In this document: one piece after another, positions 4,514-46,716 of the stretch
Layout: the number at the start of each line of letters is the position of its first letter
Position numbering within the stretch: position 1 is the first letter of the stretch
DNA from: Escherichia coli O157 typing phage 14
Reading direction: 5' to 3' (one strand)
Sequence record: KP869112
DNA: 64,000 nt
Notes under the pieces: generated by a model
Databases searched by the model: none
Seen by the model: only the letters and a program-made list of their open reading frames with translations
What the model was told of the DNA's origin: nothing
Position numbers and translations under genes: made by a program

Positions 4514-5047
4514 ATGACTTGTGCTAGAAAACCTGATGAACAACGTAACGCCTACGATGAGTATGTGACACCGGAGTGGTGTGCAGAAGGGCTGTATGAC
4601 CTTATTCCGTTCCCAGAAGACTGGACCTACTTAGAGCCTTGCAGGAATAGTGCCTCAGGTGTGTTCTACTCCCGTATGCCGTTAGGATCTGCATGGGGAG
4701 AAATCCAAGAAGGTGTTGACTATCTGAATACAGAATACAACCATGTTGACTGTATTATCACCAACCCACCATACAGCTTGGCTCGTGAGTTTGTAGACAA
4801 GGCGTTGAAAGATGCTGACGTAGTTATTATGCTTTTACGTCTTAATTTTCTGGAAAGCAAAGCCAGATTTGAATGGTGGCTTGATAATGCACCTACCACT
4901 GTGATCACAATATCTAAGCGTCCGTCATTTCAATCAAATGGCAGAACTGACGGGCAAGCATATGCATATTTTGTGTGGGATAAGAAAAACCGTTTAGGCT
5001 TGCCGCCATTTATGTGGTTGGCACCCCCAGAGGTAGACCTGAAATGA
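4514..5047 (+). CDS. small phage Dam-like DNA N6-adenine methyltransferase
   Basis: YVTPEW and ITNPPY (NPPY catalytic motif) in a 177 aa protein. Confidence 0.55.
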   Translation: MTCARKPDEQRNAYDEYVTPEWCAEGLYDLIPFPEDWTYLEPCRNSASGVFYSRMPLGSAWGEIQEGVDYLNTEYNHVDCIITNPPYSLAREFVDKALKDADVVIMLLRLNFLESKARFEWWLDNAPTTVITISKRPSFQSNGRTDGQAYAYFVWDKKNRLGLPPFMWLAPPEVDLK

Positions 5048-5328
5048 AAATGAGTGCTAAGGACAAATTACACCAGTTAGCGCTAAAATGTCCTGTAACG
5101 CTCCCTGACGAGCTTAACTCCATTTATGATGCGATTGTAGGGGAGATACAAAATAAAGCGTTAGCAGGCTTTCTGGGATGCGGATTTTCGATAAATCTAC
5201 CCTCGCATCTCTCAGATTACTTCCCGCATATTGTTGGGGATTTGAGGGCAGGAGGTCTGCAGGTAGATGTTGTTGGCATCTCTCCAGAGAAAAATAATAC
5301 GGTTGCCTACTTGACAGTAACCTGGTAG
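5044..5328 (+). CDS. hypothetical protein
   Basis: Start chosen at internal ATG overlapping upstream stop (ATGA); ORF track 5014..5328. Confidence 0.45.
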   Translation: MKMSAKDKLHQLALKCPVTLPDELNSIYDAIVGEIQNKALAGFLGCGFSINLPSHLSDYFPHIVGDLRAGGLQVDVVGISPEKNNTVAYLTVTW

Positions 5329-5362
5329 TAGTGTATTGTTGTTCTCAACAAGGGGGTCATTT

Positions 5363-5602
5363 ATGTACAAGTCATTTTCAATTTACTCAAGACAGGCGAA
5401 ACACTACACAGAGATCCTGATTACTCAGAAAAAATCTGTAGAAGGTGAGTGGGAATATCACCATAAAATGTTGCGTCCAGATTGGGTTTTTGATAGACTT
5501 ATTGCCATGATCCCTCTTGGGGAAGTATACCCTCTGACAGGTGGGAGGGATGCTTGGGATTTAATTGATTACATAGATTCATTTAAGGAGCCCAGTGTAT
5601 GA
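5363..5602 (+). CDS. hypothetical protein
   Basis: Internal ATG with AAGGGGG RBS; ORF track 5336..5602. Confidence 0.4.
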   Translation: MYKSFSIYSRQAKHYTEILITQKKSVEGEWEYHHKMLRPDWVFDRLIAMIPLGEVYPLTGGRDAWDLIDYIDSFKEPSV

Positions 5603-5997
5603 AGATTGAGATCACTAAAGAAGGTAAGAAAGTGTCTGGAGACTATGCAACAGTAATTCGAGATTTAATGTTTGAAACCACCAAGTTCGGCACATCTAAA
5701 GTTGGTCAAACTGTTAGTGTGCAAGGCAATATCACCACAGGGGAGAAGATAATCATTGTAATCAAAGGGCAGGATCCTGTGGAAGGAACAGTGGGCCGAG
5801 GAGGATACCTGTGCATTTCTGAAGAGCCACGTATGCTGGTGGCTGACCACACTACAGGTGGGAAACGTGTGTGCGAGGCGAATGAGGTAATGATTATTCA
5901 ACCTGTTGATCCAGATGATCCAGCAACTTGGGTGGTAGGAAATGAAATCTTCTCCTTAGAAGAGTTATCCTTCCCAGCCCCACGCTCTGTTCAGTAA
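5599..5997 (+). CDS. hypothetical protein (132 aa)
   Basis: ORF overlapping upstream stop by 4 nt. Confidence 0.5.
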   Translation: MKIEITKEGKKVSGDYATVIRDLMFETTKFGTSKVGQTVSVQGNITTGEKIIIVIKGQDPVEGTVGRGGYLCISEEPRMLVADHTTGGKRVCEANEVMIIQPVDPDDPATWVVGNEIFSLEELSFPAPRSVQ

Positions 5998-6036
5998 TAA
6001 TTTATCTTACCATGGACGGTAGAAGCAGGAGGTAGC

Positions 6037-6270
6037 ATGAAAGTTAAATTTCTTACAGATTTAGGGTACCCTTCCTTGGTTGACTGCATTGGTAAAATTG
6101 TGGAAGCAAAACGGCTATCTGCAAACGATAATGTTGTCATGGTTAAGGGAAAAGATTTATTAGCTGCAGGTGCAGAGTCTGGCAGGATCTCTCCTGACTA
6201 TACATATTACTTATCTTTAAGTAATCTACCAGAACGAGGCGGCAAAGGCCTTGAAGTTGTGGAGGAGTGA
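6037..6270 (+). CDS. small acidic protein, MKVK-family paralog
   Basis: MKVKFL N-terminus, KGKDLLAAGA core, acidic EVVEE C-terminus shared with other family members. Confidence 0.5.
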   Translation: MKVKFLTDLGYPSLVDCIGKIVEAKRLSANDNVVMVKGKDLLAAGAESGRISPDYTYYLSLSNLPERGGKGLEVVEE

Positions 6271-6812
6271 CAGGTATGCTTCTGATTAACTGGGAAGACC
6301 TCTATGGGGACAAAGACCCTGTTGCGTTTGTTGATCGTAGATGGAGATACACTGAAGAACAACTGGCTGCAAAAAATTTAACTGCGAAACGCAGAAAGAT
6401 CATCCAGTGCAAGTACAAATACGCACAATTTGCTGCAAAAGTGTCTCCACAAATCGAGAGTTTTGTACTTAAATTGTATGACGAATACCTCAAGTTCAAA
6501 TTGGATTTTGTACAGGTGTACCGTGCACAGGTACGCCCAGATACCAACATATGTAGATGGAAGGTTGTTTGTGACGGTAAAGATTTGCCGCTCAGCTTGA
6601 CAATTGAGTGGCGTTATGGGTATCATGAGTGTGGTCTGTATGATATTTGGGATGTCATTGTAGATCCTGCTAAGTACCTGAACACAGAGGAGCTGGAATA
6701 TATCAATAAGGTTATTCTCGATATGTTTTTCAGATACACCCGTGAAAACTCTGAGAAAGAACGGGATGATTTTCTTGACACCATCAGCAACCATCTGCAG
6801 TATACAATTTAA
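6267..6812 (+). CDS. hypothetical protein (181 aa)
   Basis: ORF, 4-nt overlap with upstream gene. Confidence 0.5.
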   Translation: MTGMLLINWEDLYGDKDPVAFVDRRWRYTEEQLAAKNLTAKRRKIIQCKYKYAQFAAKVSPQIESFVLKLYDEYLKFKLDFVQVYRAQVRPDTNICRWKVVCDGKDLPLSLTIEWRYGYHECGLYDIWDVIVDPAKYLNTEELEYINKVILDMFFRYTRENSEKERDDFLDTISNHLQYTI

Positions 6813-6830
6813 CCTACAAAGGGAGGGCTA

Positions 6831-7067
6831 ATGAGTATAAATGTTGTGCTAATAGGCTACCTGGTAATAGCCGTTATAACAGCGGTATTCTTGACAGGTA
6901 TATGCATCGTGTCTAGACGAAAGGTGAAGTTTGATGATTTTATCACCATCATCACTGCTGCACCTTTTTGGCCTATTGTTATCTTCATCGTAATAATGTG
7001 CCTAGTTGATTACTACAAGAATATTCGTAAGGAGAAAAAGGAGAGTAGGGATGGAGACCGCACCTAA
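6831..7067 (+). CDS. small membrane protein (2 predicted TM helices)
   Basis: Hydrophobic stretches VVLIGYLVIAVITAVFL and FWPIVIFIVIMCL. Confidence 0.45.
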   Translation: MSINVVLIGYLVIAVITAVFLTGICIVSRRKVKFDDFITIITAAPFWPIVIFIVIMCLVDYYKNIRKEKKESRDGDRT

Positions 7068-7180
7068 AGCTGTTTATACTGTTCTTAAAGAGATTGCGTT
7101 CTACGCAGATCTTAGCCAGGCACCTTTATGGGAAAAGAGCATGTATTTAAAATGGTGCGTTAATTTAGGGAGACCTTCCA

Positions 7181-7669
7181 GTGTTTCAAGCCATGTTTAT
7201 TGAGATGCTATCTGGGGTATTGTTACTGGTAGCCATCTTAGGTGGTGCAGTTCTGATGTATAACTATCTTGAAAAAGGAGAAATTTTAACAAAATCTGGA
7301 AAGATAACTTTGATACCTCTTGATAGTAAAGGTAAAGACCCGTCACGACTTGTTATAGATGATTACGTTACAGGTGTGACGTTCGAGGTCTCTGTGGAGA
7401 GGTTAATACGCAGAGCTGGCGGCCCTTATGACCGAAGAGAGTATGTTTTCGATTCCGTTACAGAGATGGGGGAGCATCCGTCTTTAATGTTCAGGATGGT
7501 AATCAGGGATATGAGGTCATCTATAGATAGGATCGTAAAGGACATTAAGGAACCTTTTAGGGTAAAAGTTAAGAAGTTTTTTGATTCTAAGATTAACATA
7601 CTTGCTGTTGTGCTAGGCGTAATTCAACTTCTGTTAATTTTGCACTATTTTGAACTGTTGTTTAAGTAG
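7181..7669 (+). CDS. membrane protein (162 aa)
   Basis: N- and C-terminal hydrophobic helices. Confidence 0.45.
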   Translation: MFQAMFIEMLSGVLLLVAILGGAVLMYNYLEKGEILTKSGKITLIPLDSKGKDPSRLVIDDYVTGVTFEVSVERLIRRAGGPYDRREYVFDSVTEMGEHPSLMFRMVIRDMRSSIDRIVKDIKEPFRVKVKKFFDSKINILAVVLGVIQLLLILHYFELLFK

Positions 7670-7729
7670 TGTGCAACAAGGCACAAAGGATGTGCCATAA
7701 TTAAACAAATTAAGAAAGAGGTAGAGAGA

Positions 7730-8077
7730 ATGTCAAAGATTAAATCGATATTAATGTGGGTAGCTGTTGTGGCTTTTGTAGGATACTGGACTTGGGAAAC
7801 TGAATTAAAAGATATCGGATATACCAGTCTTGAGAGCAAGGCATGCATTGGCATAACCGATGCATTCAGGCAAAATGCTATGGATCACGAATGTGTCGAT
7901 GCAGATATAGATGAGAAACTATCTAAGGACAAGGATTTTTACCATGGTCATGCCTTGCTTGATAGTGGTGACACTGTAGAATTCTGGTCGTGGTTCCGTG
8001 AAGATGGAACAATAAAGACAGCAGTAAAGATTTCCAACAAAGAGTTAATGCTGTTGCAGCAGAAGGAGGCTCAATGA
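7730..8077 (+). CDS. hypothetical protein with N-terminal TM/signal anchor
   Basis: AAGAAAGAGG RBS; hydrophobic N-terminus. Confidence 0.5.
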   Translation: MSKIKSILMWVAVVAFVGYWTWETELKDIGYTSLESKACIGITDAFRQNAMDHECVDADIDEKLSKDKDFYHGHALLDSGDTVEFWSWFREDGTIKTAVKISNKELMLLQQKEAQ

Positions 8078-8361
8078 TCTGGATATCTTATACTGATGGC
8101 ACCATGCTGTATACTGCAGGTACCAGATATGAAGTTCAGGAGAACGATAAAAAATTTATCGTAAGAACATTTGACAAGGACGACAACCTTTTGCTAGAAT
8201 TGACTTACAAGGTTGGAGAGGTATCCAATATCCAATTGGATTGTGGTCATAAAGATAATCCACTCAAAAAACCTGGAATAGGCAAGGCTTCAGAAGAACG
8301 TTTGTCTCGTATTGCAGAAAGCGTTTCTCCCCAAAAATCCAAGAAGAGGATTAGAAAATGA
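8074..8361 (+). CDS. hypothetical protein (95 aa)
   Basis: ORF, 4-nt overlap junctions. Confidence 0.5.
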   Translation: MIWISYTDGTMLYTAGTRYEVQENDKKFIVRTFDKDDNLLLELTYKVGEVSNIQLDCGHKDNPLKKPGIGKASEERLSRIAESVSPQKSKKRIRK

Positions 8362-8558
8362 GTGACAAAATTCTTAAATTTAATACCTACTATGAGAATG
8401 ATTTGAACGATCTGTATTATATAGTGCGTAGCGAAAACCCAAATGTAGTTCTGTTTTGCCGAGAACCTTTCAAAAAAGAGGAGATTGAATCTACCATGAA
8501 TGTGGATCAGATTTCACACCTGCTGCTCCTTGGATCATTAAAAGAGGCAGTATTCTAA
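8358..8558 (+). CDS. hypothetical protein (66 aa)
   Basis: ORF, overlapping junction. Confidence 0.45.
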   Translation: MSDKILKFNTYYENDLNDLYYIVRSENPNVVLFCREPFKKEEIESTMNVDQISHLLLLGSLKEAVF

Positions 8559-8577
8559 ACCAGGGTGGAGGGTTTTT

Positions 8578-8763
8578 ATGAAGCATTATTGTCTGTCTGG
8601 TAGATTGGGTGCAGATTGTGATTGGGTTTTCTTAAAACTTGTCAGCATTCGAGAGTCCATCTCAGAAGAAGAGCAAGAAAGTGAGCTGATGTCATGGATC
8701 AACCATTACGGTAACACTTTTCGGCATGTTAAGGTAGAAGAGTTGCCAAGCGAGGCTGATTGA
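8578..8763 (+). CDS. hypothetical protein (61 aa)
   Basis: ORF with GGAGGG RBS. Confidence 0.4.
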   Translation: MKHYCLSGRLGADCDWVFLKLVSIRESISEEEQESELMSWINHYGNTFRHVKVEELPSEAD

Positions 8764-8858
8764 CTATGATTGCATCAATATTAACGTTTATGGGTGGCGT
8801 GGCATTCGGATTCATTGTTTGCCTGTTTATAGTGATTATGTCTATGCGAGGCTGAATT

Positions 8859-9155
8859 ATGAAACTTTTTGAGTGGTTTAAAAAGTTTAAATATAAAGCT
8901 GTAGCCATCGTGCCGTGGTCCATTCAGTGGGTTGATGAAGGTGGTCTACCAATACCTGGTGACAAAGATACTGGGTACTGGATTATGATGGAGAACGGGT
9001 TTGGAAAGCGAAAGTATACGTGCACAAACTCTACTCGATCTGCGCTTAATAGAGTGCCTGGTTACAAACTTATGGTTGTGTGGAAAATGTCAGGCGTGCC
9101 TCCAGCTAATGCTCAATTTCTTACTGACAATCCGACCACGGTAGAGGGAGATTGA
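8859..9155 (+). CDS. hypothetical protein (98 aa)
   Basis: ORF in co-directional array. Confidence 0.5.
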   Translation: MKLFEWFKKFKYKAVAIVPWSIQWVDEGGLPIPGDKDTGYWIMMENGFGKRKYTCTNSTRSALNRVPGYKLMVVWKMSGVPPANAQFLTDNPTTVEGD

Positions 9156-9439
9156 TAATGAAAAAGATTAACAGTGGTGAAGTTGAGTTTAAACTTGTCG
9201 GGAAAGGCACTTACTGGGAAGTTCGTCAAAAGGTATATTTGTTCGGTCTTATTCCCTATTGGTCTAAATTCTACTGGGGAGCTAACGAGTGGGGAAGATA
9301 CGCCACCAAATCAATGGCACTTATTGGTATAGCAGAGTACATTGCAGCCAGAGATAGGGTTGGAGACACTTATTACTATACTGCGGACGATATTCGTAAC
9401 AGTGTTTACGTCCCACAACCACCTGATGGAGACCGTTGA
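9152..9439 (+). CDS. hypothetical protein (95 aa)
   Basis: ORF, overlapping junctions. Confidence 0.5.
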   Translation: MIMKKINSGEVEFKLVGKGTYWEVRQKVYLFGLIPYWSKFYWGANEWGRYATKSMALIGIAEYIAARDRVGDTYYYTADDIRNSVYVPQPPDGDR

Positions 9440-9663
9440 TGAAAGTTAAAGTTTTAGATTCAAGCTTCTATATTGGTCAGGAGCCTTTAGTAGGAAAAGT
9501 GTTTACTGCTGTCCCTAACGAAGATTACCCTGACCTTTTAAAAATAAAAGGAGCAGATCTTATTGCCGCTGGTGCATCTCAGGAATGCTTTGACAGTCAG
9601 TGGACCTACAACTTTGCCCTAGGTGAGGATGTAGAGGTAGTGGAGGACGATCATGAAGGTTAA
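9436..9663 (+). CDS. small acidic protein, MKVK-family paralog
   Basis: MMKVKVLD...KGADLIAAGA...EVVEDD. Confidence 0.5.
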   Translation: MMKVKVLDSSFYIGQEPLVGKVFTAVPNEDYPDLLKIKGADLIAAGASQECFDSQWTYNFALGEDVEVVEDDHEG

Positions 9664-9907
9664 AATTCTTGATTCTAACGTCTACTTGGGACAATCCTTC
9701 CTGAATGGAAAGGTCGTTCCTGCGGTATACTTTGAAGGGTTGCCGTGGGATGATCCTGTGCGGCAACATCACAGTTATGTAGGCCACAACGTGGTGTTTA
9801 TCTTGGGATCAGACCTGATCACCGCTGGTGCACCTGAATATTATTTCGGGGAAGAGTCCTACTATGCCTTTGGGGTAGGGTCAGATGCAGATATTGTAGA
9901 GCTGTGA
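9653..9907 (+). CDS. small acidic protein, MKVK-family paralog
   Basis: MKVKILD...GSDLITAGA...DIVEL. Confidence 0.5.
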   Translation: MKVKILDSNVYLGQSFLNGKVVPAVYFEGLPWDDPVRQHHSYVGHNVVFILGSDLITAGAPEYYFGEESYYAFGVGSDADIVEL

Positions 9908-9919
9908 TGGGTAACCGTT

Positions 9920-10318
9920 GTGAAAAATAAACTGTTTAAAGTTACAATGAAAATTCGCGGGGCTTGGAGCGTAAAGCAAGGGCGTATTCCAGAATTTGAG
10001 AAAGACTTCTACGTAGTCTCCACCTCGGAGGAGGCTGCATGCTGGCAGGCTGGCTATGCCTATGCAAGAACCTGGTACGAAGGATACCAGACTGGGGGCT
10101 ATGACGGAGAAATTATCAGCAAGGGTGTAGAAGAAATTAATGTGTTGACAAGTGAAAAAGTTTTTGTTATAGTGCATCCAGATTCCAGAGTGAAGCATTA
10201 CTGGAATGCCAGAACAAAAACTTGGACACCGTTTGCAGATTCTGCTACGCCACTTTTAAACCAGAAAGCTCTTGACTCTGCCCCAAGTTATGGGGTTGTT
10301 GAAGAAAAGCTAAACTGA
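9920..10318 (+). CDS. hypothetical protein, paralog of 12125..12520
   Basis: Shared ...HYWNARTKTWTP... / ...YYWDVLNNEWTP... C-terminal region. Confidence 0.5.
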   Translation: MKNKLFKVTMKIRGAWSVKQGRIPEFEKDFYVVSTSEEAACWQAGYAYARTWYEGYQTGGYDGEIISKGVEEINVLTSEKVFVIVHPDSRVKHYWNARTKTWTPFADSATPLLNQKALDSAPSYGVVEEKLN

Positions 10319-10335
10319 AACAGTGAGGTGTCACC

Positions 10336-10626: not shown

Positions 10627-10708
10627 AAACTGTTGACACAACGCTTCAGATTTAGTATCATTGTTTTCAAAGATGGTTTGGTTCCCTCTTCTTTAAAAGG
10701 AACACGTT

Positions 10709-11026: not shown

Positions 11027-11163
11027 GGTGCTACAATGGGCGTGATTAAGAAACTAGTCCCAAATGTAGAGATTGCATGCTTTGAAATTATGTTTGCAAT
11101 CGCAGTTGTAGTTAATGTGTTAGGTTACGGCTATTAATATCAAATAATTGAGGAGACCTCTAA

Positions 11164-11433
11164 ATGAAAATTAAATTATTCAAAACTGAGCTGGCAGACA
11201 AAAACTGTGGACTGGTTGAAGGCATGATTGTCGAAGCACAACCAGTTGACTATATGAAGGTGGTTCGTGATGCCCTGGGTGAAGGTTTTGATCTGATGGA
11301 GCCAGCTCTGCGAGAAGATGTTATCGAGATGGCTAAAAAGCACACACCTGAAGGAATGGTGGTGTTTGTTGCACCAGGTAACGGAGAAGAGTTGATTGTA
11401 ACTCCGGATGTGTATGAGATTGTAGAGGAATAA
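11164..11433 (+). CDS. small acidic protein, MKVK-family paralog
   Basis: MKIKLF...EIVEE. Confidence 0.5.
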   Translation: MKIKLFKTELADKNCGLVEGMIVEAQPVDYMKVVRDALGEGFDLMEPALREDVIEMAKKHTPEGMVVFVAPGNGEELIVTPDVYEIVEE

Positions 11434-11524
11434 TCCTGCTTGGATTAGCATACTTCCTCGACAAGGAAGGTTTGTAATTATTTGTGGGAAAGGAATCCCA
11501 ATCTCTTACCATAGGTGATACTAT

Positions 11525-11788
11525 ATGATTGTTTATTTTAAAACTTCAGGTGGATACCCTGATTCTCAAAGCTTGATCGGAAAAACGTGCACAGCATACT
11601 CACCTCTTGATGAGGAGGTAGGCGATATTCTACGAAATATGTATCGGATTGATCCCCAAGAAGCCTTTGATCAAAACCTTGTATTTGTCAAGGGCTCAGA
11701 CATGAAGTCTTTGGGAGCATTCCCTGAAGCAGATGATGATGCCGTTTATTCGTTCATGACCCCTTTTGAAGCTATGGTTGTCGGGTGA
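11525..11788 (+). CDS. small acidic protein, MKVK-family-like
   Basis: VFVKGSDMKSLGAF core. Confidence 0.45.
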   Translation: MIVYFKTSGGYPDSQSLIGKTCTAYSPLDEEVGDILRNMYRIDPQEAFDQNLVFVKGSDMKSLGAFPEADDDAVYSFMTPFEAMVVG

Positions 11789-11792
11789 TAAT

Positions 11793-12125
11793 ATGAAAGT
11801 ACGCTTTATTGGTGAAACAATTCCTGTGCATCTCCGGTCGCCTGAGGATTCTGCAGATCTTGCATCTCAGAAAGCGAGAGGCTATGATAAGAAAGTAACC
11901 TCAACCGGTGTAGTGCTTGAGGCTACTAGTCTACCTGACCCTGCTGCATTCTTTAATCATTATGGGTACTATTTCAGCAATCTTATGAATATCGGTGAGC
12001 TTGTGTTTATTAGTGGTGGAGAGATTGTTAGCAAGCTTGGCGGCGATCCGGATGTCTTTCATGAAACCTGTCCTTTTGCATTTGTGGTAGGTTCAGATGT
12101 GGAAGTTATTGAGGAGGTGCGGTAA
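11793..12125 (+). CDS. small acidic protein, MKVK-family paralog
   Basis: Internal ATG (MKVRFIG) chosen; GSDVEVIEEV C-terminus; ORF track 11766..12125. Confidence 0.45.
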   Translation: MKVRFIGETIPVHLRSPEDSADLASQKARGYDKKVTSTGVVLEATSLPDPAAFFNHYGYYFSNLMNIGELVFISGGEIVSKLGGDPDVFHETCPFAFVVGSDVEVIEEVR

Positions 12126-12520: not shown

Positions 12521-12596
12521 TTTTCTTGCACACAGGTGTTGACAACACCAACCCTGTGTGAAATAATACCTTCATCTTAACAAGACGGGAGACTGA

Positions 12597-16525: not shown

Positions 16526-18049
16526 CACACAATTAGCTACCCGGCTAAAGTGCTGGGAGCACCTATAACACATCTTTCAACTAAATTTCCTACCACCACA
16601 ATCACTTACCTCCCACACATGACTGTTTGCTTGTTTAGTGAGCAGTCATGCCTTGACATTCTTGCCTATCCTGATAAAATTAAGTTCTTCTCTTTTCTTT
16701 TACCGAGTAATTCGGGTTTTCTGTTCTCTTCGGTTTGAAGGGGTATGGAGATACACCTGAGTGAACAGGGTGAACAACCGAACCATTGGCTATGGCATTA
16801 GCATGGCGAAGCGGACGGGTGACGAAAGAGGGGCCGGAGGACACCAGTCACTGCCATATGATATATAGGTGATAACCTGAAGAGTCTGAATAAGTGTTTA
16901 AGTACCAGTCAGAGGAAAAGGTGAATGGTAGCCGAAGGGGGAGGGGGGTTTCTTGTATCTTTAATTTGTATATTATGTATACACTTGTAAACCAACACCA
17001 TCTGAATTTGCTTACCACACAAAGCGGATAGAGACAAATATTACCTATTAAACTTGAATTATTTATAGAAAATACCACAACACCACTTAAGTCTTTGATT
17101 TTACACATAAATCCTACAGATATTCACCCTCCATATTTAACATACTTGTAACATATCTATACCCAACCTGTCTGATCAACTCACCCAACTACATCCTCCA
17201 TATTTCCCCTGTCTGTACTACCCCTGCCCAGCCGGGAGTCCCGTCATATCTGGCTTTCCAGCAAATATCACACCCACAAATATCATTGCCTGAAGAGGGT
17301 TTCATCCCATAATACATGCCTTACCTGAAGAGCGCTTCATACACCACGTAAATTTTTTAATTGACCTGCAATTTTCCCGTCATGACCCCCTGCCCCGCCA
17401 GAGAGGTTGACTTTTCCCACACAGACCTGAAGAGCCAGCCAGAAATATCTGAACAGGTCCAGTTATACCACGATTTTGACCTGACCGACAGGAGTGCCTC
17501 CCTGTCAGGAGCCGGTAGCGACTGGAGTGCTGCCAGGCGGACGAAATGGGAATACTTCTCATTCTTATAATAATTCTCAAATATCGAGGCAGTGAGGCAA
17601 ATTAATAGGTGAGGCCGTTCACACAGTGGCACAACATTTGCAACCTATCTTGTGGGGTGAATGAGAATACCTATCATTGTGAGAATAGTTATCATTACGG
17701 GCAATTTAACATAATACCCATTATGCGCACCACTGGCGATACATACAGGGGTTGATAACATGAGTTACTGTTTACGCACATAACAATTATATTTCTTACT
17801 ATTTGTGTGGGATATAGTTAGCAGCCGATAGATTAGATATTGACCTGTAGACTTCCAACCGTCTAGACGTCTAAACGCCCACACAACAAGGCTTATACAT
17901 ACATCACTGAATGTAAACAGGACCGCAAAAATGCTACCATACAAGCTTGTAAATTTTTCATGCAGCACTTGACAAAGAGGAGGAAAACTTGTCTGACACA
18001 CTGGGCACAACATAACATACTGCAGCACAATATGACACAATAACGACTG

Positions 18050-36994: not shown

Positions 36995-36997
36995 GTA

Positions 36998-38410: not shown

Positions 38411-38459
38411 AAAAGTCTCCTCTTTGCTCAACAGCACCTCCCTGTGCTGATAGTTTACA

Positions 38460-41237
38460 TTAGTGACAATCACCCCAGTTACGACCACACAAGTATTCAC
38501 CTGTGATCTGGAACGGGACTCCCATCATTTTAGAAGCTTGCCAGAAGCAATGCACCACCATTTCACCTACAGGGCTCCAGATAAGTTCAAGCTTTCCGTC
38601 ATCGTTCAGGATAGGATCGTACACCGTGTTTCCGTCTCTGTCAACCACTTCGTTTCCGTCCTCATCCTTGCGTGCCTTTTTGTACTTATGACCGTCGAAC
38701 ACATGAAGTTTGGCCTCCTGCTCTGCCTTAAATGCTTCCAGTTCTTCAATTGTGTCGAAGGTGTACACAGTCTTATACTTCGGTGTGTCAGGCACTTGAA
38801 GCTGATATTCGTCATGGTAATAGATAATACGACGGACACCTTCATCGTACCACCCACGCTTCACCATTTGGTGGTGCATGAGTATCCCAACTAAGTCACA
38901 CAGCGATGCACCACCATTCTGTTGGTATGCATTAAGTAAAGAGTGTTTAGATCGGGTCCAGATAGCATGACCATCAAAAGAGTAGATAAACTTCTTACCT
39001 GTTGCTTCCCAGAATTTCTCCAGATCCTCTTTGCGCCCCTTAAGACCAGGGTTGGCATCCCAGAGTGCATCGATTACCCTTTGTCCCAACTCTGGAGAGA
39101 TGTCCAGCATATCTGCAACTTTATCTTTTTGTGCCCCGTACATAACCCCATACGTGATAGGTTTACCGTCGTTACGAGACACCTCTCTGCCTGCTACTTT
39201 TGTATATGCCTCAGCATTGTTTTGGTGTGCGTCCCCGTTACTTACAACATCATAATACAAGCCGTTGTCGAACTCAAAGGCACCCCAAGCCCCGATAAGC
39301 TGCTCTAAGTTGGACCCGTCAATACCGATCTCAAAGTATCCAGGAGGAACACCCCACAAGCTACGCATCTCCTTACCCATAACCACTTTAGGAGAGGGTT
39401 TAGGCATGTTTGCACAAATGCTGTGTTTCTGTCTGGAAGTGTTTGTTAATCCGGAGCTTTTAGCAGGAAGCTTATGGTCAATCTTCAAGCGTGGGTGATT
39501 AAGAAGACCAGTATCAACCTTATCCTCCTTGATTGGATCAAGGACCGATCTGCGGTTTCGCAATGATAACCACAAGACGATATCCTTAGCCATCTCTCCG
39601 TTCAATTTTTCAAGATTCGGACATAGGTGTCCAAACGTATCTTTCAGTTGCGGAGAAGTAATAAGTGCCCTAGCTTTTCTACGTATTTTCCCGAATACTT
39701 CCTTTTTAATCCTTTCGGAGTTAGGAAAGCTTCGGAACTTGTGCACTGTTGTCTGAAACTTAGCATCAGTTTTGTTCCAGAAGTTGATAATTAGGTCACA
39801 ATACTCTGACTCTAAAAGCTCGTCCATGTATGCATATACTCGTGCATCAACATCTGCATCAGGTAGAGCTTTCTTCTTGCTGTCTTTAGTTACATCCTTA
39901 GTTCTCCACATTGTCGGAAGCCAACCAGCACTGATCAGGTATCGCTTAATGTCGTCCTGATTGCTGATTTTCATAGGTATCTTGCAGTCCGGCATTCGCT
40001 TCTGCTGTAGATCACTTATTGCCTGATCCATCAGCTCTTTAGGTAAAGGTTGTGGTGTGGAAGTGCCCTTAATATAGCCTCTCAAGAAATCAGCCATCTT
40101 ATCAGGGTCTTTGCAGCCCATCTCTTCACACCATTTTATCCCCATCTTACTGACATCTCCTGTGGAGGTAAATGCTCGCTTAGGCTGGGCTTTGAACTCT
40201 AAAGCGCTCATGTCTACAGGATAGCCAAGCTTATCTTTTAACCATTTCCAACCATTATTGGAGATTGTCCCATCTTGGTTAAACGGCTTTTCAGGGAACT
40301 TGGGCCGCTGAGACATTGACAGCTCTTTTAAAGGTAGTTGTGGTTCAACACGATCAGCTATTTCTTTCATCCACGCATCACAACGGTCACGTAAAGCAAT
40401 AGCTCCATCTATGTCAAAATACACACCCTGACGGGCCTGCAGCTCCATCAGGAAGTGCTGCAGCATGCCTCGGCGTAGTGCGTTCTTCCAGGTGATCTTC
40501 TTGAACCCTTTCGGCTTCTCTTTGGCAGGATCGTACATAAAGTTCTGCATGTCAGATTTGCCGTAGAATACACCTTTTGATTCCGCTACCAGCTCTTTCC
40601 AGAGCAGCTCCTGGATGATAACGTCCTCGAATACACGATCCACATACTTCCACAATGGAAGATCGCGCCAGTCATCAATTTGAACTTTCTGGTTACCAAG
40701 GGCGTAGCCCCATGCCATAAGGCCGTGAGGACCAACAGGCTGCATTTTCTTAGTAACCGGGTTGAATACGGAGTCCGGACAACCTTTTGGTAAAGGGCGA
40801 TCAGGCCACAAGATTCGGCTCATCGCCAACGTATCAAACAGGTTAACCTGGTGGTCGTTGATAGTCCCCATACATTTAGGATCACGGAACATATCAAAAT
40901 GAATACCGGATAATCTCTCCATCAGCATAAAGTCATAACTGTAGCAGTTATGGCAGTTCAAAGCTGTTGGTGACCAGTCGGAATTTCCTGTAAGCCAACC
41001 TTCCAACTCCGAAAAATCTGCTATGCGAACTTCAAAATCCTTATAAAGAGTTTTCTTTGCCAGAATAAAGTTCTTGGCCTTCTCTATATCCTCCTCGGAG
41101 TAGTGTGTGCGGTCATTCAGAGGAAGGAACAGCATAAAACGGTTCTTATTCAGCTCTTTAAACAGGCCGCAGTGATAATAAAGATCTGGGTCTTCCAGCA
41201 AACCGGATGACTCAAAATCGAACGACCACATGCTCAT
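38460..41237 (-). CDS. family A DNA polymerase with 3'-5' exonuclease domain
   Basis: N-terminal FDFE (Exo I DxE), KPITYGVMYGAQ (motif B YG) and YYHDEYQ (motif C HDE) characteristic of Pol I family. Confidence 0.85.
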   Translation of the reverse strand: MSMWSFDFESSGLLEDPDLYYHCGLFKELNKNRFMLFLPLNDRTHYSEEDIEKAKNFILAKKTLYKDFEVRIADFSELEGWLTGNSDWSPTALNCHNCYSYDFMLMERLSGIHFDMFRDPKCMGTINDHQVNLFDTLAMSRILWPDRPLPKGCPDSVFNPVTKKMQPVGPHGLMAWGYALGNQKVQIDDWRDLPLWKYVDRVFEDVIIQELLWKELVAESKGVFYGKSDMQNFMYDPAKEKPKGFKKITWKNALRRGMLQHFLMELQARQGVYFDIDGAIALRDRCDAWMKEIADRVEPQLPLKELSMSQRPKFPEKPFNQDGTISNNGWKWLKDKLGYPVDMSALEFKAQPKRAFTSTGDVSKMGIKWCEEMGCKDPDKMADFLRGYIKGTSTPQPLPKELMDQAISDLQQKRMPDCKIPMKISNQDDIKRYLISAGWLPTMWRTKDVTKDSKKKALPDADVDARVYAYMDELLESEYCDLIINFWNKTDAKFQTTVHKFRSFPNSERIKKEVFGKIRRKARALITSPQLKDTFGHLCPNLEKLNGEMAKDIVLWLSLRNRRSVLDPIKEDKVDTGLLNHPRLKIDHKLPAKSSGLTNTSRQKHSICANMPKPSPKVVMGKEMRSLWGVPPGYFEIGIDGSNLEQLIGAWGAFEFDNGLYYDVVSNGDAHQNNAEAYTKVAGREVSRNDGKPITYGVMYGAQKDKVADMLDISPELGQRVIDALWDANPGLKGRKEDLEKFWEATGKKFIYSFDGHAIWTRSKHSLLNAYQQNGGASLCDLVGILMHHQMVKRGWYDEGVRRIIYYHDEYQLQVPDTPKYKTVYTFDTIEELEAFKAEQEAKLHVFDGHKYKKARKDEDGNEVVDRDGNTVYDPILNDDGKLELIWSPVGEMVVHCFWQASKMMGVPFQITGEYLCGRNWGDCH

Positions 41238-41295
41238 ATACAGTTCTCCTTAAAGGGGAGGCAGTTGTACTACCCCTCCCACTCTTTGTTAAACA

Positions 41296-43374
41296 TTAAA
41301 AAGGTGTTTCATCATCCTCAAAACCAGGAACATGGTCAGAGGACGGATCATCGTACTGGAGGTCTTCCTGCGTGTCAACAGGCTTAACAGTAGGAGTTAC
41401 AACCTTATCAGCCACAACCTTGCCCATAGGTGTTTCTACAACTGCATGCTCCTGATCCTCAAACATAGCCTGAGGTCTCCAAACAACCTCCCCACCTTCT
41501 CCATCTGTAAACATTTGCATTTCTTTGTCCCAGTACCAATTACTGGCATCATGGAACTTACCTGTATGTGGGTCCATAACCAAAGTGTCTGCAATACCCA
41601 ATGTTTTTGCTGGACGGTTTTTAAGACCTACTAAACGGACACGCCCACGAGAACGATCCACCATTTCTTCGGCCTCGACACCTATGACTACCCAACTCAA
41701 CTGTTCAAGCCCAGCCGATCCTCGCAAATTCTCTTTTCGCACAGGATACCAGAAAGGTAACGGGTTACCATCCTTGTCTTTAGGAGGCACAATCTCTGTA
41801 CGTTTGAGGTGAGCGATCACCAAGATAAACACATTAAACTGCTTACAAAACGCAGCCAGTTGGGTCATAGCTATGTCCAGTTCTTTTCGCTCATCCTTAA
41901 CATTAAGACCTGAAATTACCATGGACAGGTGATCCAGCACAATATAACGACAATGGTACAGGCAAACCATTTGCTTAAGCTTGGTAATCAACTCGTCCAC
42001 CGGAATAGATCCGAAATGTTTGAACACTTTGATTTTTCCAGCTTTTGCCCATGATTGGTGAATCTCTGCGTGTTCTTGATCAGTTAAAAACTGGCTAGGA
42101 TCTTCAACAAACTCTTTAACATCAAACCCTAACTGGTTTGCATACAAGGAGTTAATTGCTTCCTCTGGGTCCTCCTCAAGATGGATCATGCATAGACGAT
42201 CATCCTCTTCGTAGTCATCGGCCTTCGGGCATGTCGGGTCCATCAAGTATCTTGCAATACAATGTTCCAGTTTTTTAGCTACAGTTGTTTTACCGCCCCC
42301 TGATGGCCCTGTAAGCATTACGAGTGTCCCTTTGTGCAAGCCTTTTAGCATTTTTTGCAGTTTTGGGAACTCTGCACTGATATCTACCCCGTTGGAAGTC
42401 TTTTTCCGCAAAGACTCGATAGAGAAGTCTTCTAAATCCGACACAGCATCAGGCACATATTTAACAGGGTGCCGGAACATGTTGACAATATCTTCCAGCT
42501 TTTTAGCCTTCAGCATGTCTCGGATATCTTTTACACCGTCAGGGTCATTTACTTCACCAGGGTATTCTACGTGGTAAACGTTATCAGCCATCAAAAATGC
42601 TGCGATATTGTGCGTGGCCTCAACACCTTTAATGACGTGTTTTTGCTTCTCTACCTCGTTAGCTGCATCGTTATCCATTGCCAGCACAACTGTTCCATAG
42701 CTACGGATAAACTTCTCATTGTTTGCAAAAGTATCTACTGCGTTTGCACATCCACAGTTAATTCCAACAAAAGGCAGGCAGGGTTTTCCTGCCAGATCAC
42801 CACCGTTGATAACTGCGTCGATCCCGTCCTGGACCTCTTTAGCCCACTGCTTCACCTTTGCCGGGGCTTTAGCGTTGGTGAGAATCCCTTTTACTTGTAT
42901 CTGATATGCAGCCTGCCATGCTGCAATAACATCACCTTCTCCCTCACAAACGTTAATCTGCTTACGGTTGTTGGAAGATGCACACAGCTTTTGACCAAAC
43001 ATCTGGGAGTTGGCCTTTACGATGCCAACAACGGAGAAATGGCCCCTTTGCTCTTTAGGAATAGTCCAGTCACGCTTTTTGAAACCAGACAGATTTCCAT
43101 AGCGGTCGTAATATGGGAAATATGTTGCAGTGACTGTCACACCGTCTTCTTGGGACAATGCTGATCGCACACCAAAATATTGTGCAGCCATAAGACCGAT
43201 ATTTTGTTGTGGGACAGGGACAATTTTAGTATTTTCTAAAACAGTCTCTACAGTTTCAACTTCTTTTTCATCACGATAGTCTCGTTTCACACTTCCCCCA
43301 CTTTTATACTTAGTTGCTTTCGGGTTTGGCTCACCGAAACGGTTGTATGCAGATGCCATAAATTTACTTCCCAT
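41296..43374 (-). CDS. bifunctional primase-helicase (Toprim plus DnaB-like helicase)
   Basis: Walker A LTGPSGGGKTT, Walker B-like, N-terminal EGEGD Toprim-like motif; immediately upstream of the polymerase gene. Confidence 0.75.
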   Translation of the reverse strand: MGSKFMASAYNRFGEPNPKATKYKSGGSVKRDYRDEKEVETVETVLENTKIVPVPQQNIGLMAAQYFGVRSALSQEDGVTVTATYFPYYDRYGNLSGFKKRDWTIPKEQRGHFSVVGIVKANSQMFGQKLCASSNNRKQINVCEGEGDVIAAWQAAYQIQVKGILTNAKAPAKVKQWAKEVQDGIDAVINGGDLAGKPCLPFVGINCGCANAVDTFANNEKFIRSYGTVVLAMDNDAANEVEKQKHVIKGVEATHNIAAFLMADNVYHVEYPGEVNDPDGVKDIRDMLKAKKLEDIVNMFRHPVKYVPDAVSDLEDFSIESLRKKTSNGVDISAEFPKLQKMLKGLHKGTLVMLTGPSGGGKTTVAKKLEHCIARYLMDPTCPKADDYEEDDRLCMIHLEEDPEEAINSLYANQLGFDVKEFVEDPSQFLTDQEHAEIHQSWAKAGKIKVFKHFGSIPVDELITKLKQMVCLYHCRYIVLDHLSMVISGLNVKDERKELDIAMTQLAAFCKQFNVFILVIAHLKRTEIVPPKDKDGNPLPFWYPVRKENLRGSAGLEQLSWVVIGVEAEEMVDRSRGRVRLVGLKNRPAKTLGIADTLVMDPHTGKFHDASNWYWDKEMQMFTDGEGGEVVWRPQAMFEDQEHAVVETPMGKVVADKVVTPTVKPVDTQEDLQYDDPSSDHVPGFEDDETPF

Positions 43375-44158
43375 TAATTCTGCTCCTTACTACAGGCTCG
43401 TTTGCTAAGAATACGGCTTTTGCCCAGCCACGTGGTGTGAGGCTTCGGATCATCTTCGTTCTTGCACTCTTTCCACCCAGCTTGGCGTGTTGCATGGAAT
43501 ACCCGCTAACCGCGTCAACTATTTGCGGGACAGGTTTTGTGGCCGGGATTATAAATCCATTACCTATCCAGCCGCAAGTTATTTTTGGATAGGCATCACG
43601 TGGAGCTATAAATTCAGGAAACCAAGGGTTTACATCATCCTCCGGTAAATACCCGCCATAGTCAGAAGGATGAAAACGGTAATCAGGTTTGCGCCACAGT
43701 GTGGACATAACACCAACAGGATTCTCTACATGCCACGGGCAATCGTAAATCTCTCCCAGCTCTTCCGCAACCCGAGCATCCTTTACAGCATTAATTTGGA
43801 TCATGGGGTCCTTAGCCAGCTTTTTCTTAAAATGTGCAGCACCTGATACCGCTAAATGCGTGCACGGAGGAAATGCAAGAATAAAGTCTGGGGCTGGGTA
43901 CATGCAAAAAGTTTCCTGAGGGAACCATGGGTCAATCCAATAATCCACATAGTGGATGTTGGGATGATCGGTTATCACCTCTGCATAACTGCCGTGATCA
44001 GCACCTTCTGCATTGAAGCATAGGCACAGGTACCCAGCTTTTGCCCAGTCAATGACTGCACCACCAGACCCGTCAAATAGACTCCACACAACACCTTTGT
44101 GGTGGTGTTCTTTGTAGATAAATTTCAATTTGCTGTCTCCTAATGCAAAAAGCCCCAC
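43364..44158 (-). CDS. DNA cytosine-5 methyltransferase-like protein (divergent)
   Basis: LFDGSGG (motif I-like), FPPCTHLAVSG (PC catalytic motif IV-like), VENPVG (ENV motif VI). Confidence 0.5.
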   Translation of the reverse strand: MGLFALGDSKLKFIYKEHHHKGVVWSLFDGSGGAVIDWAKAGYLCLCFNAEGADHGSYAEVITDHPNIHYVDYWIDPWFPQETFCMYPAPDFILAFPPCTHLAVSGAAHFKKKLAKDPMIQINAVKDARVAEELGEIYDCPWHVENPVGVMSTLWRKPDYRFHPSDYGGYLPEDDVNPWFPEFIAPRDAYPKITCGWIGNGFIIPATKPVPQIVDAVSGYSMQHAKLGGKSARTKMIRSLTPRGWAKAVFLANEPVVRSRINGK

Positions 44159-44179
44159 CCTTTCGGGCAGGGCCTAGTG

Positions 44180-44662
44180 TTAAACCCGGATACCTATTGT
44201 ATACTCGGTGGATACCAATGTCAAATCTAAATTTAAAATTTCTTGCATCTCATAGTATGCGTCCAGGGTGAGATACATTTCCCCATCCTTTTCTACATAC
44301 TTGTCCAAGTGCTTGAGGCATTTCGGATAACTATCGAGTGCAGCTTTCAGACACTCAAACTCTGTGCTGTTGATGAGTCCTTCCATCTTGGCTACCCGTT
44401 CTGGGGTAACGATAGCACTGTAGTGAGATTTAGCTTCCTGAATGCAATGGGTCCAAGCATCAACTTTCTCTTCGAAAAGTCCGAAGAATTTCTTTTTGGT
44501 GAGCTTCAGATTCTTTAAGTGCTTAAGCACTCGGTTGCCGATCACAGCCACATCACGAAACTTAAGGATCACTTTGTCGATATCCTCGCGGCCTATTTTC
44601 ACAAAGCAAGCCTCACACATTTCAGGAGCTGCGTAACCTACTTTCCACATAAAATCTGACAT
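44180..44662 (-). CDS. hypothetical protein (160 aa)
   Basis: ORF in minus array. Confidence 0.5.
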   Translation of the reverse strand: MSDFMWKVGYAAPEMCEACFVKIGREDIDKVILKFRDVAVIGNRVLKHLKNLKLTKKKFFGLFEEKVDAWTHCIQEAKSHYSAIVTPERVAKMEGLINSTEFECLKAALDSYPKCLKHLDKYVEKDGEMYLTLDAYYEMQEILNLDLTLVSTEYTIGIRV

Positions 44663-44674
44663 AACACTATCTCC

Positions 44675-45073
44675 TTATTCTTCCTGAAAAGCAACGATAT
44701 CATATGAACTTGCAGACGATCCTGGTGAAGAATGACTCCAGTCTAGGTCATCAGAGTAGTCAGCGTACTGTGCACCACTACGTAGTTTATATTTTACCCA
44801 CTTACCTGGTGCAGGGTTTTCACCACCTTCCCATACTTCCCAGCCTTCTGGCAGGCCGTCCTGGGGATAGTCATCCACCTCACTAATAATCTTAGGGTTT
44901 GGCACCAAGATCCCTGCAGGCTCTTCCTTACGGATAAGTGTCCACACAACGTAGGTGTCTGAGCAGGCGCATGATAGCAAAGTATATCCACTATTCAGAA
45001 CTTCTGCAAGCTCTTTTTCAGCATCTTCCAATTTGGTTAAGTGGTATTGGATAACCTTCACACCTGTAATCAT
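44675..45073 (-). CDS. hypothetical protein (132 aa)
   Basis: ORF in minus array. Confidence 0.5.
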   Translation of the reverse strand: MITGVKVIQYHLTKLEDAEKELAEVLNSGYTLLSCACSDTYVVWTLIRKEEPAGILVPNPKIISEVDDYPQDGLPEGWEVWEGGENPAPGKWVKYKLRSGAQYADYSDDLDWSHSSPGSSASSYDIVAFQEE

Positions 45074-45378
45074 CAGAAACCTCCCACTTCTTCAGCAAAT
45101 GCAGCTGCTGTCGTCGCTGCATCCAGATAGGACTCTAGTTCACGGGCTGCACGTTTGTAAATTGAGTGTCGCAAATCGTTTGGCAGTTGGTGGAAGTCCA
45201 CCTCTTCACCGTTGTGGTAAACATGCACATCGGTGATTTGTCTAAATCCGTAACAGTCAACATCAGAATCCCGGCACTCCGGATCTGGCAACTGAACAAC
45301 TGCCTGAGCTTCCACAGTAAACATATCGTCAAGTTCGAAATCGATTTCAAAAGTGTATGGTTTATAACGTTTCATCAT
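45073..45378 (-). CDS. hypothetical protein (101 aa)
   Basis: ORF overlapping junction. Confidence 0.5.
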   Translation of the reverse strand: MMKRYKPYTFEIDFELDDMFTVEAQAVVQLPDPECRDSDVDCYGFRQITDVHVYHNGEEVDFHQLPNDLRHSIYKRAARELESYLDAATTAAAFAEEVGGF

Positions 45379-45391
45379 TTGATTGTACTCT

Positions 45392-45676
45392 TTATTGATC
45401 AGAATTATCTTTCGTAATTAAGGTCTGGGTAAGTTTGTAATAGCGGAAGCCACCGCCACCTTGCCAGCTTGCAGACTTAGAAATACCACCTTGATCTTCA
45501 CCATCAATCACTTTTTGCAAGCGAGGGATAATATGGGTATGACAATGATCACCCAGTTCGATCAAGATCCAACGTCTTTTCATCTTGTGGGCTACAGCAG
45601 CAGTAGTTCCCGAACCGCCGAATGAATCCAATACCAAATCACCTTCTCGCGTACACATTTCGAGAATCCGCTTCAA
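45392..45676 (-). CDS. C-terminal segment of split N6-adenine/N4-cytosine DNA methyltransferase (SAM-binding motif I)
   Basis: Frame contains WKKPEALLKRILEMCTREGDLVLDSFGGSGTT (FxGxG SAM-binding motif); no plausible independent start. Confidence 0.5.
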   Translation of the reverse strand: MKRILEMCTREGDLVLDSFGGSGTTAAVAHKMKRRWILIELGDHCHTHIIPRLQKVIDGEDQGGISKSASWQGGGGFRYYKLTQTLITKDNSDQ

Positions 45677-46716
45677 AAGCGCTTCTGGTTTTTTCCATTT
45701 TTGAAACTAACGCCGCCTTCATTTGCTATTCCATTCCAACTAATGTCTGTCCAAACATCAGTTATTAGTTCCGCAGGTCGCATCTCACCGTCAATTTCCA
45801 AAAGCCTGTTGGAGTAAAAGACCATTTGCCTACCATTTGCGATATAAAATCCTTCAACATCCTCATTCGGATGTACATAAACCTTATCCCTATCTTTCTT
45901 TGACTTCTCGATAGTTTCTTTTCTCTTTATTTTAGCGCCACCACCAATTGCAACAGATTGAAATACACGTTCTGCATTATCAATTGCGAATTGTGCTAAT
46001 TCATCATCGAATGTGTCAGGCAGTTTTTTCTTAGCTTCTTTTGCATCTTTATAGCCATTGGCCTTTGCAAACGCATCGGCAATACCGCACCACGTCCAAT
46101 TTTTATAATGGTCATCCGGGTTTAATAGGTATTTGTTATATCCTGTATCATACCCTTTAGGTATATAGATTTTGTTAAGCGGTTTCTGGGTGCGATCTTT
46201 TGCATATACAAGCAAAAAGTTTGCTGTGGAGAAAACTGTGGCTCCTGTTGCCTTAAATCCCGAAGGGAAATTTGTGGTCATCGATATGGTATTTAACTGA
46301 TTTGCACGACCAAAAATCTCGTCCATCAAAACTTTTAAATACGCCATTTCGCAATCATCTAAGTGAACGAATATTACCCCATCATCACTTAGAAGATTAC
46401 GAATTATTTCTAACCTATCCCTCATTAAGCCCAGCCAAACGGAATGCTCCAGGCTATCATCGTAGTGCTCAAAAGCCCTCCCGGTATTGAATGGTGGGTC
46501 TATGTAAACACACTTCACTTTGCCTGCATACTCTTGCTCTAGCGCCTTCAATGCTAATAAGTTATCTCCAAAAATCAGTTTATTATCAAAAATATCGTTT
46601 TCGGTCACTTTCTGGCTGTGGTAAGACTTGCTAGAATCTTCTAACAAAATGTGCTGCTCTAACTTTTTGCGCTCGTTTTTACCTATCCAGGTAAGTTCTA
46701 ATTTGGTTTTACTCAT
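45673..46716 (-). CDS. N-terminal segment of split beta-class DNA methyltransferase (DPPF catalytic motif)
   Basis: VYIDPPFNTG motif IV; ends 4 nt into the downstream frame carrying motif I. Confidence 0.6.
   Translation of the reverse strand: MSKTKLELTWIGKNERKKLEQHILLEDSSKSYHSQKVTENDIFDNKLIFGDNLLALKALEQEYAGKVKCVYIDPPFNTGRAFEHYDDSLEHSVWLGLMRDRLEIIRNLLSDDGVIFVHLDDCEMAYLKVLMDEIFGRANQLNTISMTTNFPSGFKATGATVFSTANFLLVYAKDRTQKPLNKIYIPKGYDTGYNKYLLNPDDHYKNWTWCGIADAFAKANGYKDAKEAKKKLPDTFDDELAQFAIDNAERVFQSVAIGGGAKIKRKETIEKSKKDRDKVYVHPNEDVEGFYIANGRQMVFYSNRLLEIDGEMRPAELITDVWTDISWNGIANEGGVSFKNGKNQKRF

Follow-up and report, generated by a model that had tools for sequence, protein, structure and literature searches.

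A 64,000-nucleotide (nt) stretch of DNA from Escherichia coli O157 typing phage 14 (sequence record KP869112; hereafter the window) very likely carries three solitary DNA methyltransferase genes whose products act on the replicating DNA of the phage itself. Gene A would encode an enzyme forming N6-methyladenine (m6A) in GATC, gene B one forming 5-methylcytosine (5mC), and gene C a protein resembling the Mod subunits of type III restriction systems, which is split in this phage; their role would be a narrow masking of sites. The three genes are unlinked. Gene A lies at 4514..5047 on the plus strand, the open reading frame (ORF) of gene B as called at 43364..44158 on the minus strand, and the two fragments of gene C at 45673..46716 and 45392..45676, also on the minus strand, just where an original prediction made from the sequence had placed three distinct putative methyltransferases. 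All four ORF pieces are methyltransferase homologues and match PHROG families annotated 'DNA methyltransferase'. A scan of every reading frame of at least 100 amino acids (aa) in the window for (D/N/S)PP(Y/F/W) returned genes A and C only, which makes three the full number for the window; no further methyltransferase is listed in the annotation of its relatives across the same span.

Judged from its sequence, the window is part of the genome of an rV5-like Vequintavirus, a myophage. Comparison of positions 41000-48500 and 3400-6900 with GenBank phages by megablast yielded some 120 records with identities of 90-99%, almost all of them Escherichia phages of the genus Vequintavirus, including rV5, FFH2, Murica, slur16 and a dozen BASEL phages. 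By blastn, the window was collinear, in the opposite orientation, with approximately 49-113 kilobases (kb) of phage WalterGehring (Bas51, MZ501111), to which it is 95-98% identical over most of its length. In the records of the relatives all three genes already have names: two are called 'putative N6 adenine methyltransferase' and the third 'Dcm-like C5 cytosine methyltransferase', or something equivalent. Published work thus already covers the genes and their annotation as well as the activities of A and of the B family, and nothing in the set is new in kind, the only feature private to this sequence being a point deletion in gene C.

No nuclease partner was found beside A, B or C: the top PHROG matches of the neighbouring ORFs are of unknown function, none of these ORFs has a Pfam match, and their secondary PHROG matches are at most weak ones to 'DNA ligase' or 'DNA methyltransferase'. 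The same applies to a res gene adjoining gene C, where the flanking ORFs (101-160 aa) have top PHROGs of unknown function and no Pfam match; relatives without gene C still have the 456-aa helicase encoded nearby. With no restriction endonuclease among the neighbours, the three genes were rightly described as orphans.

The adenine methyltransferase encoded by gene A

The 177-aa product of gene A matched phrog_799 ('DNA methyltransferase') with an E value of 5.5e-67. Its catalytic motif IV, NPPY, occupies residues 84-87 (4763..4774, plus strand) and is immediately preceded by T83; in the wider IITNPPY (residues 81-87), T83, N84, P85 and P86 are invariant in a 30-sequence alignment (A2). Searches with the single sequences of A and B against the sequences of the PDB returned noise only, and family profiles and structure models were used instead. 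A profile of 30 homologues of A aligned with residues 21-111 of M.TaqI (E value 2e-4), the alignment covering T19-P20, the LEPC... stretch and NPPY. The motifs follow the order of the gamma class, X (xTP) being followed by I (EPxxGxG) and then by IV, with a degenerate motif I (EPCRNSASG). The AlphaFold2 (AF2) model (predicted local distance difference test score, pLDDT, 88.9) has the class I (Rossmann-like) methyltransferase fold, like adenine-N6 catalytic domains, and its Foldseek matches were type I HsdM, the PacII M protein, CamA, M.BseCI and Dim1/KsgA, with E values of 1e-5 to 1e-3 and template modelling (TM) scores of about 0.55-0.62. The alignment with M.TaqI and the AF2 matches together argue that A is a minimal gamma-class, M.TaqI-like N6-adenine methyltransferase, predicted to comprise little more than a catalytic domain, and not a member of the classical alpha-class Dam family. 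As to the classical Dam profiles in Pfam and NCBIfam, there was no match to PF02086, and TIGR01712 reached 16.1 bits against a cut-off of 97. All Pfam matches of A were sub-threshold (EcoRI_methylase, 20 bits; the Dam family PF05869, 19.2 bits for a cut-off of 28.1), and neither PF02086 nor a structure of Dam or T4 Dam was among the matches listed.

The description of A as a Dam-like NPPY enzyme in the original prediction consequently fails as a statement of family, while it stands as one of function by virtue of the orthologue in Bas51. This protein, bas51_0176 ('N6 adenine methyltransferase'), is identical to A at 175 of 177 positions, with the two substitutions G162D and V174A, and has the same neighbours, a ClpP-like protease upstream and a 'putative glycosidase' 1.2 kb downstream. 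Bas51 mutants that escape the retrons Asa1 and Squ1 carry D69G, D79G or T83P in 'the N6 adenine methyltransferase' (PMC12548924, 2025 PLoS Biology). Among the three annotated adenine methyltransferases of Bas51, only bas51_0176 has D69, D79 and T83, the others having C/G/E and Q/A/I at these positions; gene A itself keeps all three residues. Native nanopore sequencing of Bas51 detected 1405 methylated GATC adenines in the wild type, as against 35 in phage with T83P, and the methylase expressed alone was toxic and triggered the retron (PMC12548924). We counted 703 GATC sites, i.e. 1406 adenines, in the Bas51 genome after joining its four pieces, so that GATC methylation is essentially complete in Bas51. 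Since this 99%-identical orthologue methylates GATC, A would by analogy be functionally Dam-like, forming m6A on the GATC adenine. The alpha-class enzymes E. coli Dam and T4 Dam (PF02086) make the same product as the orthologue of A, m6A at GATC. In contrast to them, A follows the gamma arrangement, with TP ahead of motif I and NPPY last, and it lacks a separate domain for DNA recognition, its whole length being only 177 aa. The resemblance between A and Dam is one of convergence in target, not of family membership.

About 1.2 kb downstream of gene A, 6267..6812 (plus strand) encodes the orthologue of the Bas51 'putative glycosidase', bas51_0171, in which a premature stop at R87 provides a second route of escape from retron Asa1 (PMC12548924). 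Its product has no Pfam match and falls in PHROG 13467, of unknown function; the label 'glycosidase' is unsupported by profile searches.

The Dcm-like cytosine methyltransferase encoded by gene B

The ORF of gene B as called (43364..44158) contains LFDGSGG, FPPCT and HVENPVG, and profile searches placed its product in a methyltransferase family, phrog_757 ('DNA methyltransferase'; E value 2.9e-87). Translation very probably starts at the TTG at 44128 rather than at the GTG at 44158. The TTG has AGGAGA 7 nt upstream and yields the 254-aa product annotated in the relatives, whereas the GTG falls within a terminator-like hairpin (44150..44175, minus strand; an 11-pair stem with 7 GC pairs, followed by TTTTG) that separates the upstream 160-aa ORF from gene B. 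The gene would therefore span 43364..44128 (minus strand). At its other end, the stop of gene B overlaps the start of a primase/helicase gene by 11 nt, which places B in the replication module. Residues are numbered below according to the 264-aa ORF.

The family of B is large: we found 3548 homologues, with matches in 1505 phage records, including that of the T1-like phage Tls, in which the gene is named dcm. In a 28-sequence alignment (A1), G30, S31, F96, P97, P98, C99, T100, E145, N146, P147 and K192 are invariant or nearly so, P97, P98 and C99 being strictly invariant, as are E145, N146 and P147, and T100 nearly invariant. FDGSG is also found family-wide, and a C-terminal block, GGK...TK.IRSLTPRG, is conserved. 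Motif IV is PPCT (43859..43870, minus strand), with Cys99 as the predicted catalytic nucleophile, and the equivalent of motif VI is ENP (43718..43726, minus strand). PPCT is present in 118 of the best 120 homologues and ENP in every one, so that in this family motif VI keeps its E and N while the V of ENV is replaced by P. The motifs listed for B in the original prediction were thus correct as regards a PC followed by T and wrong as regards ENV, the literal motif being ENP.

The function of this family is indicated by phage K42. Its 711-bp 'Dcm-like' gene is the trigger of retron Ec86/Eco1 (bioRxiv 10.1101/2023.08.16.553469). The K42 protein produced 5mC on retron DNA, as found by mass spectrometry after liquid chromatography (LC-MS), activity was abolished in a C82A/E128A/K175A/K176A mutant, and defence by Ec86 against K42 depended on a CCTGG site (10.1101/2023.08.16.553469). 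We found that C82, E128 and K175-K176 of K42 Dcm land on FPPC, ENP and YPKK in ten members of the B family, including one of 236 aa. In the protein encoded in the window, C99 (equivalent to C82), E145 (equivalent to E128) and K192 are at the spacing of K42 Dcm, with a constant offset of +17, and the second lysine is replaced by I193. B belongs to the same family as K42 Dcm, PHROG 757 and the 'dcm' product of Tls, with which it has FDGSG, FPPC(T), ENP, YPK and RSLTPRG in common. It is about 50-57% identical to the short (~227-236 aa) siphovirus members, and it differs from the K42 Dcm family in having I193 for the second lysine and an insertion of 4 residues within the variable region that precedes GYS. 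Because of these two differences, its target may not be CCWGG, which is the family precedent for the predicted target.

More distantly, the profile of the B family aligned motifs I to IV with those of DNMT3B and M.HaeIII, the conserved LFDG of B corresponding to LFDG in the former and to LFSGAGG in the latter. The top 48 PDB matches of the AF2 model of B (pLDDT 85.2) in Foldseek were all DNMT3A, 3B or 3C, with E values of 3e-6 to 5e-4. While motifs I and IV of B thus align with those of DNMT3A/3B and M.HaeIII (LFDG...PC.DL; PF00145), B is only about 13-15% identical to these enzymes, with ENP in the place of ENV, a recognition region that is very short and no evident motif X. Near its C-terminus it has RSLTPRGxAxAV, which we take to resemble motif IX (R.LT.RE), and alignment A1 contains no GN(A/S)V motif X before the C-terminus. 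Sequence motifs and model together suggest that B is a short C5-cytosine methyltransferase of a phage-specific PPCT/ENP family. By analogy with K42 Dcm, Cys99 would attack C6 of the cytosine and the methyl group would be transferred to C5.

We considered the possibility, raised in the original prediction, that the T after PC marks an atypical substrate or activity, the PCT/ENP site transferring another group or acting on RNA or a nucleotide rather than making plain 5mC in DNA. It could be argued that neither the Q that canonically follows PC nor the V after EN is kept, that no motif X is recognisable past RSLTPRG and that the structural match to DNMT3 is moderate, TM-scores being only about 0.4-0.5. 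Furthermore, the protein encoded in the window has no match in Pfam or NCBIfam, and none to PF00145 at E values up to 1; these last points, like the TM-scores, also count against the assignment of B as a cytosine methyltransferase. Yet 19 of 28 members of the family matched PF00145, though weakly (best E value 1.3e-6), and the catalytic Cys, the Glu and the FDGSG of motif I are conserved throughout. DNMT3 enzymes have PCN, i.e. N rather than Q, indicating that a Q after PC is not essential. Above all, K42 Dcm makes 5mC on DNA and loses this activity upon mutation of residues that map onto the motifs of the B family. An unusual chemistry of B is therefore highly improbable. As PPCT is family-wide and K42 Dcm makes ordinary 5mC, the T after PC is a family signature.

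Upstream of gene B, a sigma-70-like promoter (44196..44224, minus strand; TTGACA-17-TACAAT, 11/12 to consensus) lies in the 3' end of the preceding ORF; within about 20 nt comes the strong terminator-like hairpin, after which lie the ribosome-binding site and the TTG of B. This could be a leader/attenuator arrangement or a chance promoter match.

The Mod-like gene C and its single-base deletion

The N-terminal fragment of gene C (45673..46716, minus strand; 347 aa) contains the DPPF of motif IV (46500..46489) and the target-recognition region. The C-terminal fragment (45392..45676, minus strand; 94 aa) starts from a TTG that overlaps the TGA of the upstream frame and contains motif I, FGGSGTT (~45622..45608). 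Both matched PF01555 (N6_N4_Mtase; cut-off 26.7 bits), with 75.7 bits for the first fragment and 56 bits for the second, which covers profile positions 171-217; the repaired protein reached 146 bits. The fragments also matched phrog_67 ('DNA methyltransferase') with E values of 7.5e-31 and 9.4e-25. Among solved structures, the repaired protein matched the type III Mod subunits 6k0w (E value 1e-28) and EcoP15I Mod (1e-22), and the C-terminal fragment matched CcrM, MboIIA and PvuII over motifs X-I. C shares with the type III Mod proteins (EcoP15I Mod, PDB 4zcf; 6k0w) the beta-class order DPPF ... recognition region ... KPxxL ... FGGSGTT. It differs from them in having no Res partner, in its length (441 aa when repaired, as against 618-644) and in being interrupted in this phage by a 1-nt deletion. 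By sequence, C would thus be a type III Mod-like, beta-class N6-adenine methyltransferase that has no Res partner.

The original prediction had described gene C as a split DPPF enzyme. The two ORFs are real, but the split is no design feature. Alignment with two relatives showed that a single G is missing, GGG having become GG at 45696-45695 (45695..45696, minus strand; alignment column 1021; context AAAAATGG[G]AAAAAACC). Among the best 60 of 87 matching relatives, the gene is uninterrupted in all, with a length of 1326 nt (441 aa) in 59 and of 1329 nt in one; the Bas51 orthologue, bas51_0070, has 15 amino-acid differences from the repaired protein. An evolved programmed frameshift was rejected on the ground that at least 60 of the closest relatives have one continuous ORF. 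The upstream frame ends 6 codons past the deletion, and the codons for KPEALLKRI (motif X), directly downstream, are read out of frame. As the shift precedes both these and the codons of FGGSGTT, the cofactor-binding motifs are missing from the 347-aa product, and KPEAL is missing from the downstream ORF of 94 aa. Provided that the sequence is right, C most probably has no activity in this phage.

Some residual expression of a full-length protein might be envisaged, because the zero-frame codons after the deletion are GGA AAA AAC and a -1 slip on the heptamer A_AAA_AAC would restore the frame. When simulated, such a slip indeed gave a single uninterrupted 441-aa product, carrying K342N, and the overlap of the upstream TGA with the TTG (TTGA) would make re-initiation possible as well. 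However, as a shift site A_AAA_AAC is weak in E. coli, no stimulatory structure was seen at the site (none was searched for), and the heptamer is created by the deletion itself, so that it is not an evolved feature; re-initiation products would lack the KPEAL part of motif X. We hold low-level expression of full-length C to be very unlikely.

A more serious alternative to the loss of C is that the deletion is a sequencing or assembly error and that the real phage has an intact 441-aa gene. The change affects one base in a short run beside an A6 homopolymer, it is found in none of the best 60 of 87 relatives, and gene C is otherwise 99.8% identical to that of rV5. Nevertheless, a run of three G is not of the length typical of homopolymer errors, and when 83 annotated Bas51 proteins were mapped on the window by tblastn, C alone was split between two frames; a generally error-prone assembly was rejected on the same count (1/83), the 82 other genes compared being clean. 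Gene C is, moreover, naturally dispensable. It was matched in 87 of about 121 relatives and is cleanly absent from Bas56 and Bas58; with about 28% of the relatives lacking the gene, its loss appears to be tolerated. A precedent for the loss of a methylase by frameshift under defence pressure is also known, K42 escapers carrying a 1-bp deletion in dcm. A sequencing error is therefore a real but lesser possibility, and we consider an inactivating mutation somewhat more likely.

That the mutation is a genuine, recent loss of function in a natural isolate, selected because the methylase sets off a defence that senses methylation (a retron, for example, or a methyl-dependent nuclease), is a narrower proposal, which we regard as rather unlikely; such a loss under defence pressure would mirror the laboratory escape mutants of Bas51 and K42. 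Directly 3' of gene C, a 101-aa ORF (45073..45378, minus strand) has a weak secondary match to phrog_1573 ('DNA methyltransferase'; E value 5e-6, profile positions 56-133 of 138); this ORF is kept in relatives that lack gene C.

Methylated sites and the role of the methylases

Besides GATC, Bas51 DNA contains m6A at GTAC, 509 such adenines being called in the wild type and 511 in the mutant of the A orthologue (PMC12548924). The Bas51 genome has 516 GTAC adenines, so that 99% of them are methylated, independently of A. Phage-specific methylation, as expected from the original prediction, is thus on record for a close relative. No methylase for GTAC is known to us in E. coli K-12, so that the GTAC enzyme is presumably encoded by the phage. 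We dropped an assignment of this activity to the orthologue of C when a fourth methyltransferase-like gene, bas51_0200, was found outside the span of the window. This gene (Bas51 MZ501111 124069..124887; L013:12069-12887, minus strand) encodes a 272-aa protein with VEPSAGRGSF ... FIGNPPF and sub-threshold Pfam matches (Eco57I, MTS); it is situated about 11 kb beyond the start of the window and is absent from the window. If the deletion in C is genuine, phage 14 would be a natural knock-out of C and could settle which of the two, the C orthologue or bas51_0200, writes m6A at GTAC in Bas51. In the literature, nothing further was found on Vequintavirus methylomes or phage GTAC methylases, and the rV5 genome paper (PMC3606486) contains nothing on methylation or on restriction digests except an XbaI digest for pulsed-field gel electrophoresis.

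We also compared the observed frequencies of short sites with those expected from base composition in the window and the Bas51 genome. The ratios were 1.32-1.40 for GATC, 1.28-1.75 for CCWGG and 0.49-0.53 for GTAC, and 0.28-0.30 for CTAG, 0.27-0.38 for CGCG and 1.73-1.75 for TGCA. Since several other tetramers are depleted to a similar extent, the site frequencies are not informative on selection.

Several points weigh against our overall reading. The GATC activity was measured in the orthologue from Bas51, not in phage 14; the Bas51 study called only N6-methyladenine and is silent on 5mC formation by B; m6A at GTAC could be due to either the C orthologue or bas51_0200; and an error of sequencing could account for the deletion in C. 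To this must be added, with respect to an anti-restriction role, that the BASEL study found the Vequintavirinae 'exceptionally susceptible' to restriction-modification, apparently without 'any effective protection'. The broad protection against host restriction put forward in the original prediction is contradicted by this, and general restriction resistance conferred by these methylases is not supported. We know of no system in the BASEL panel that cuts GATC, GTAC or CCWGG, which leaves a narrow protection plausible, outside the panel. The likely benefit would be a site-specific masking of a few short motifs against enzymes that cut them, and an anti-restriction role limited to these methylated motifs is plausible. 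It would come at a cost, as such methylases trigger retrons (PMC12548924; 10.1101/2023.08.16.553469).

Alternatively, the methylases might serve mainly phage-internal purposes, shielding rapidly replicating DNA from MutH or mismatch repair at GATC sites that lack methylation, or controlling replication, packaging or expression. Dam methylation controls packaging in phage P1 and strand choice by MutH, and the high restriction sensitivity of phages that possess these genes, the over-representation of GATC and the location of B in the replication module are in line with such a role. On the other hand, the methylase point mutants of Bas51 reached titres similar to those of the wild type on a retron-free control, so that no essential internal role is evident, and C is absent from many relatives; the BASEL results are compatible with narrow protection, as just explained. 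A mainly internal role is thus conceivable though doubtful, and we retain the narrow masking of the phage's own DNA as the preferred reading.

Some features of the window are unrelated to the methylases. Between about 17500 and 34060, a block of small hypothetical genes, identity to Bas51 falls to 90-93%, with many indels. The homing-endonuclease segments of Bas51 and the intron in its DNA polymerase gene (7936-8704, 11087-11942 and 16673-17271 of the sequence piece L010) are absent from the window. More than 30 GenBank records of the series MG0656xx, labelled 'Campylobacter phage ...' (Campylobacter jejuni), share 96-98% identity with this rV5-like coliphage sequence, an indication that coliphages were mislabelled, or present as contaminants, in those data.

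The three methyltransferase genes are standard equipment of rV5-like phages, and the value of the present analysis resides mainly in their correct annotation. One of them, gene A, already has a measured specificity, GATC, through its Bas51 orthologue, and a known cost, the triggering of retrons; it would be Dam-like in its target and not in its family. The PCT of gene B marks a large phage family of Dcm-like enzymes and would signal no new chemistry, gene C is split by a point deletion private to this sequence, and broad restriction resistance is not what these methylases would bring to the phages that carry them.

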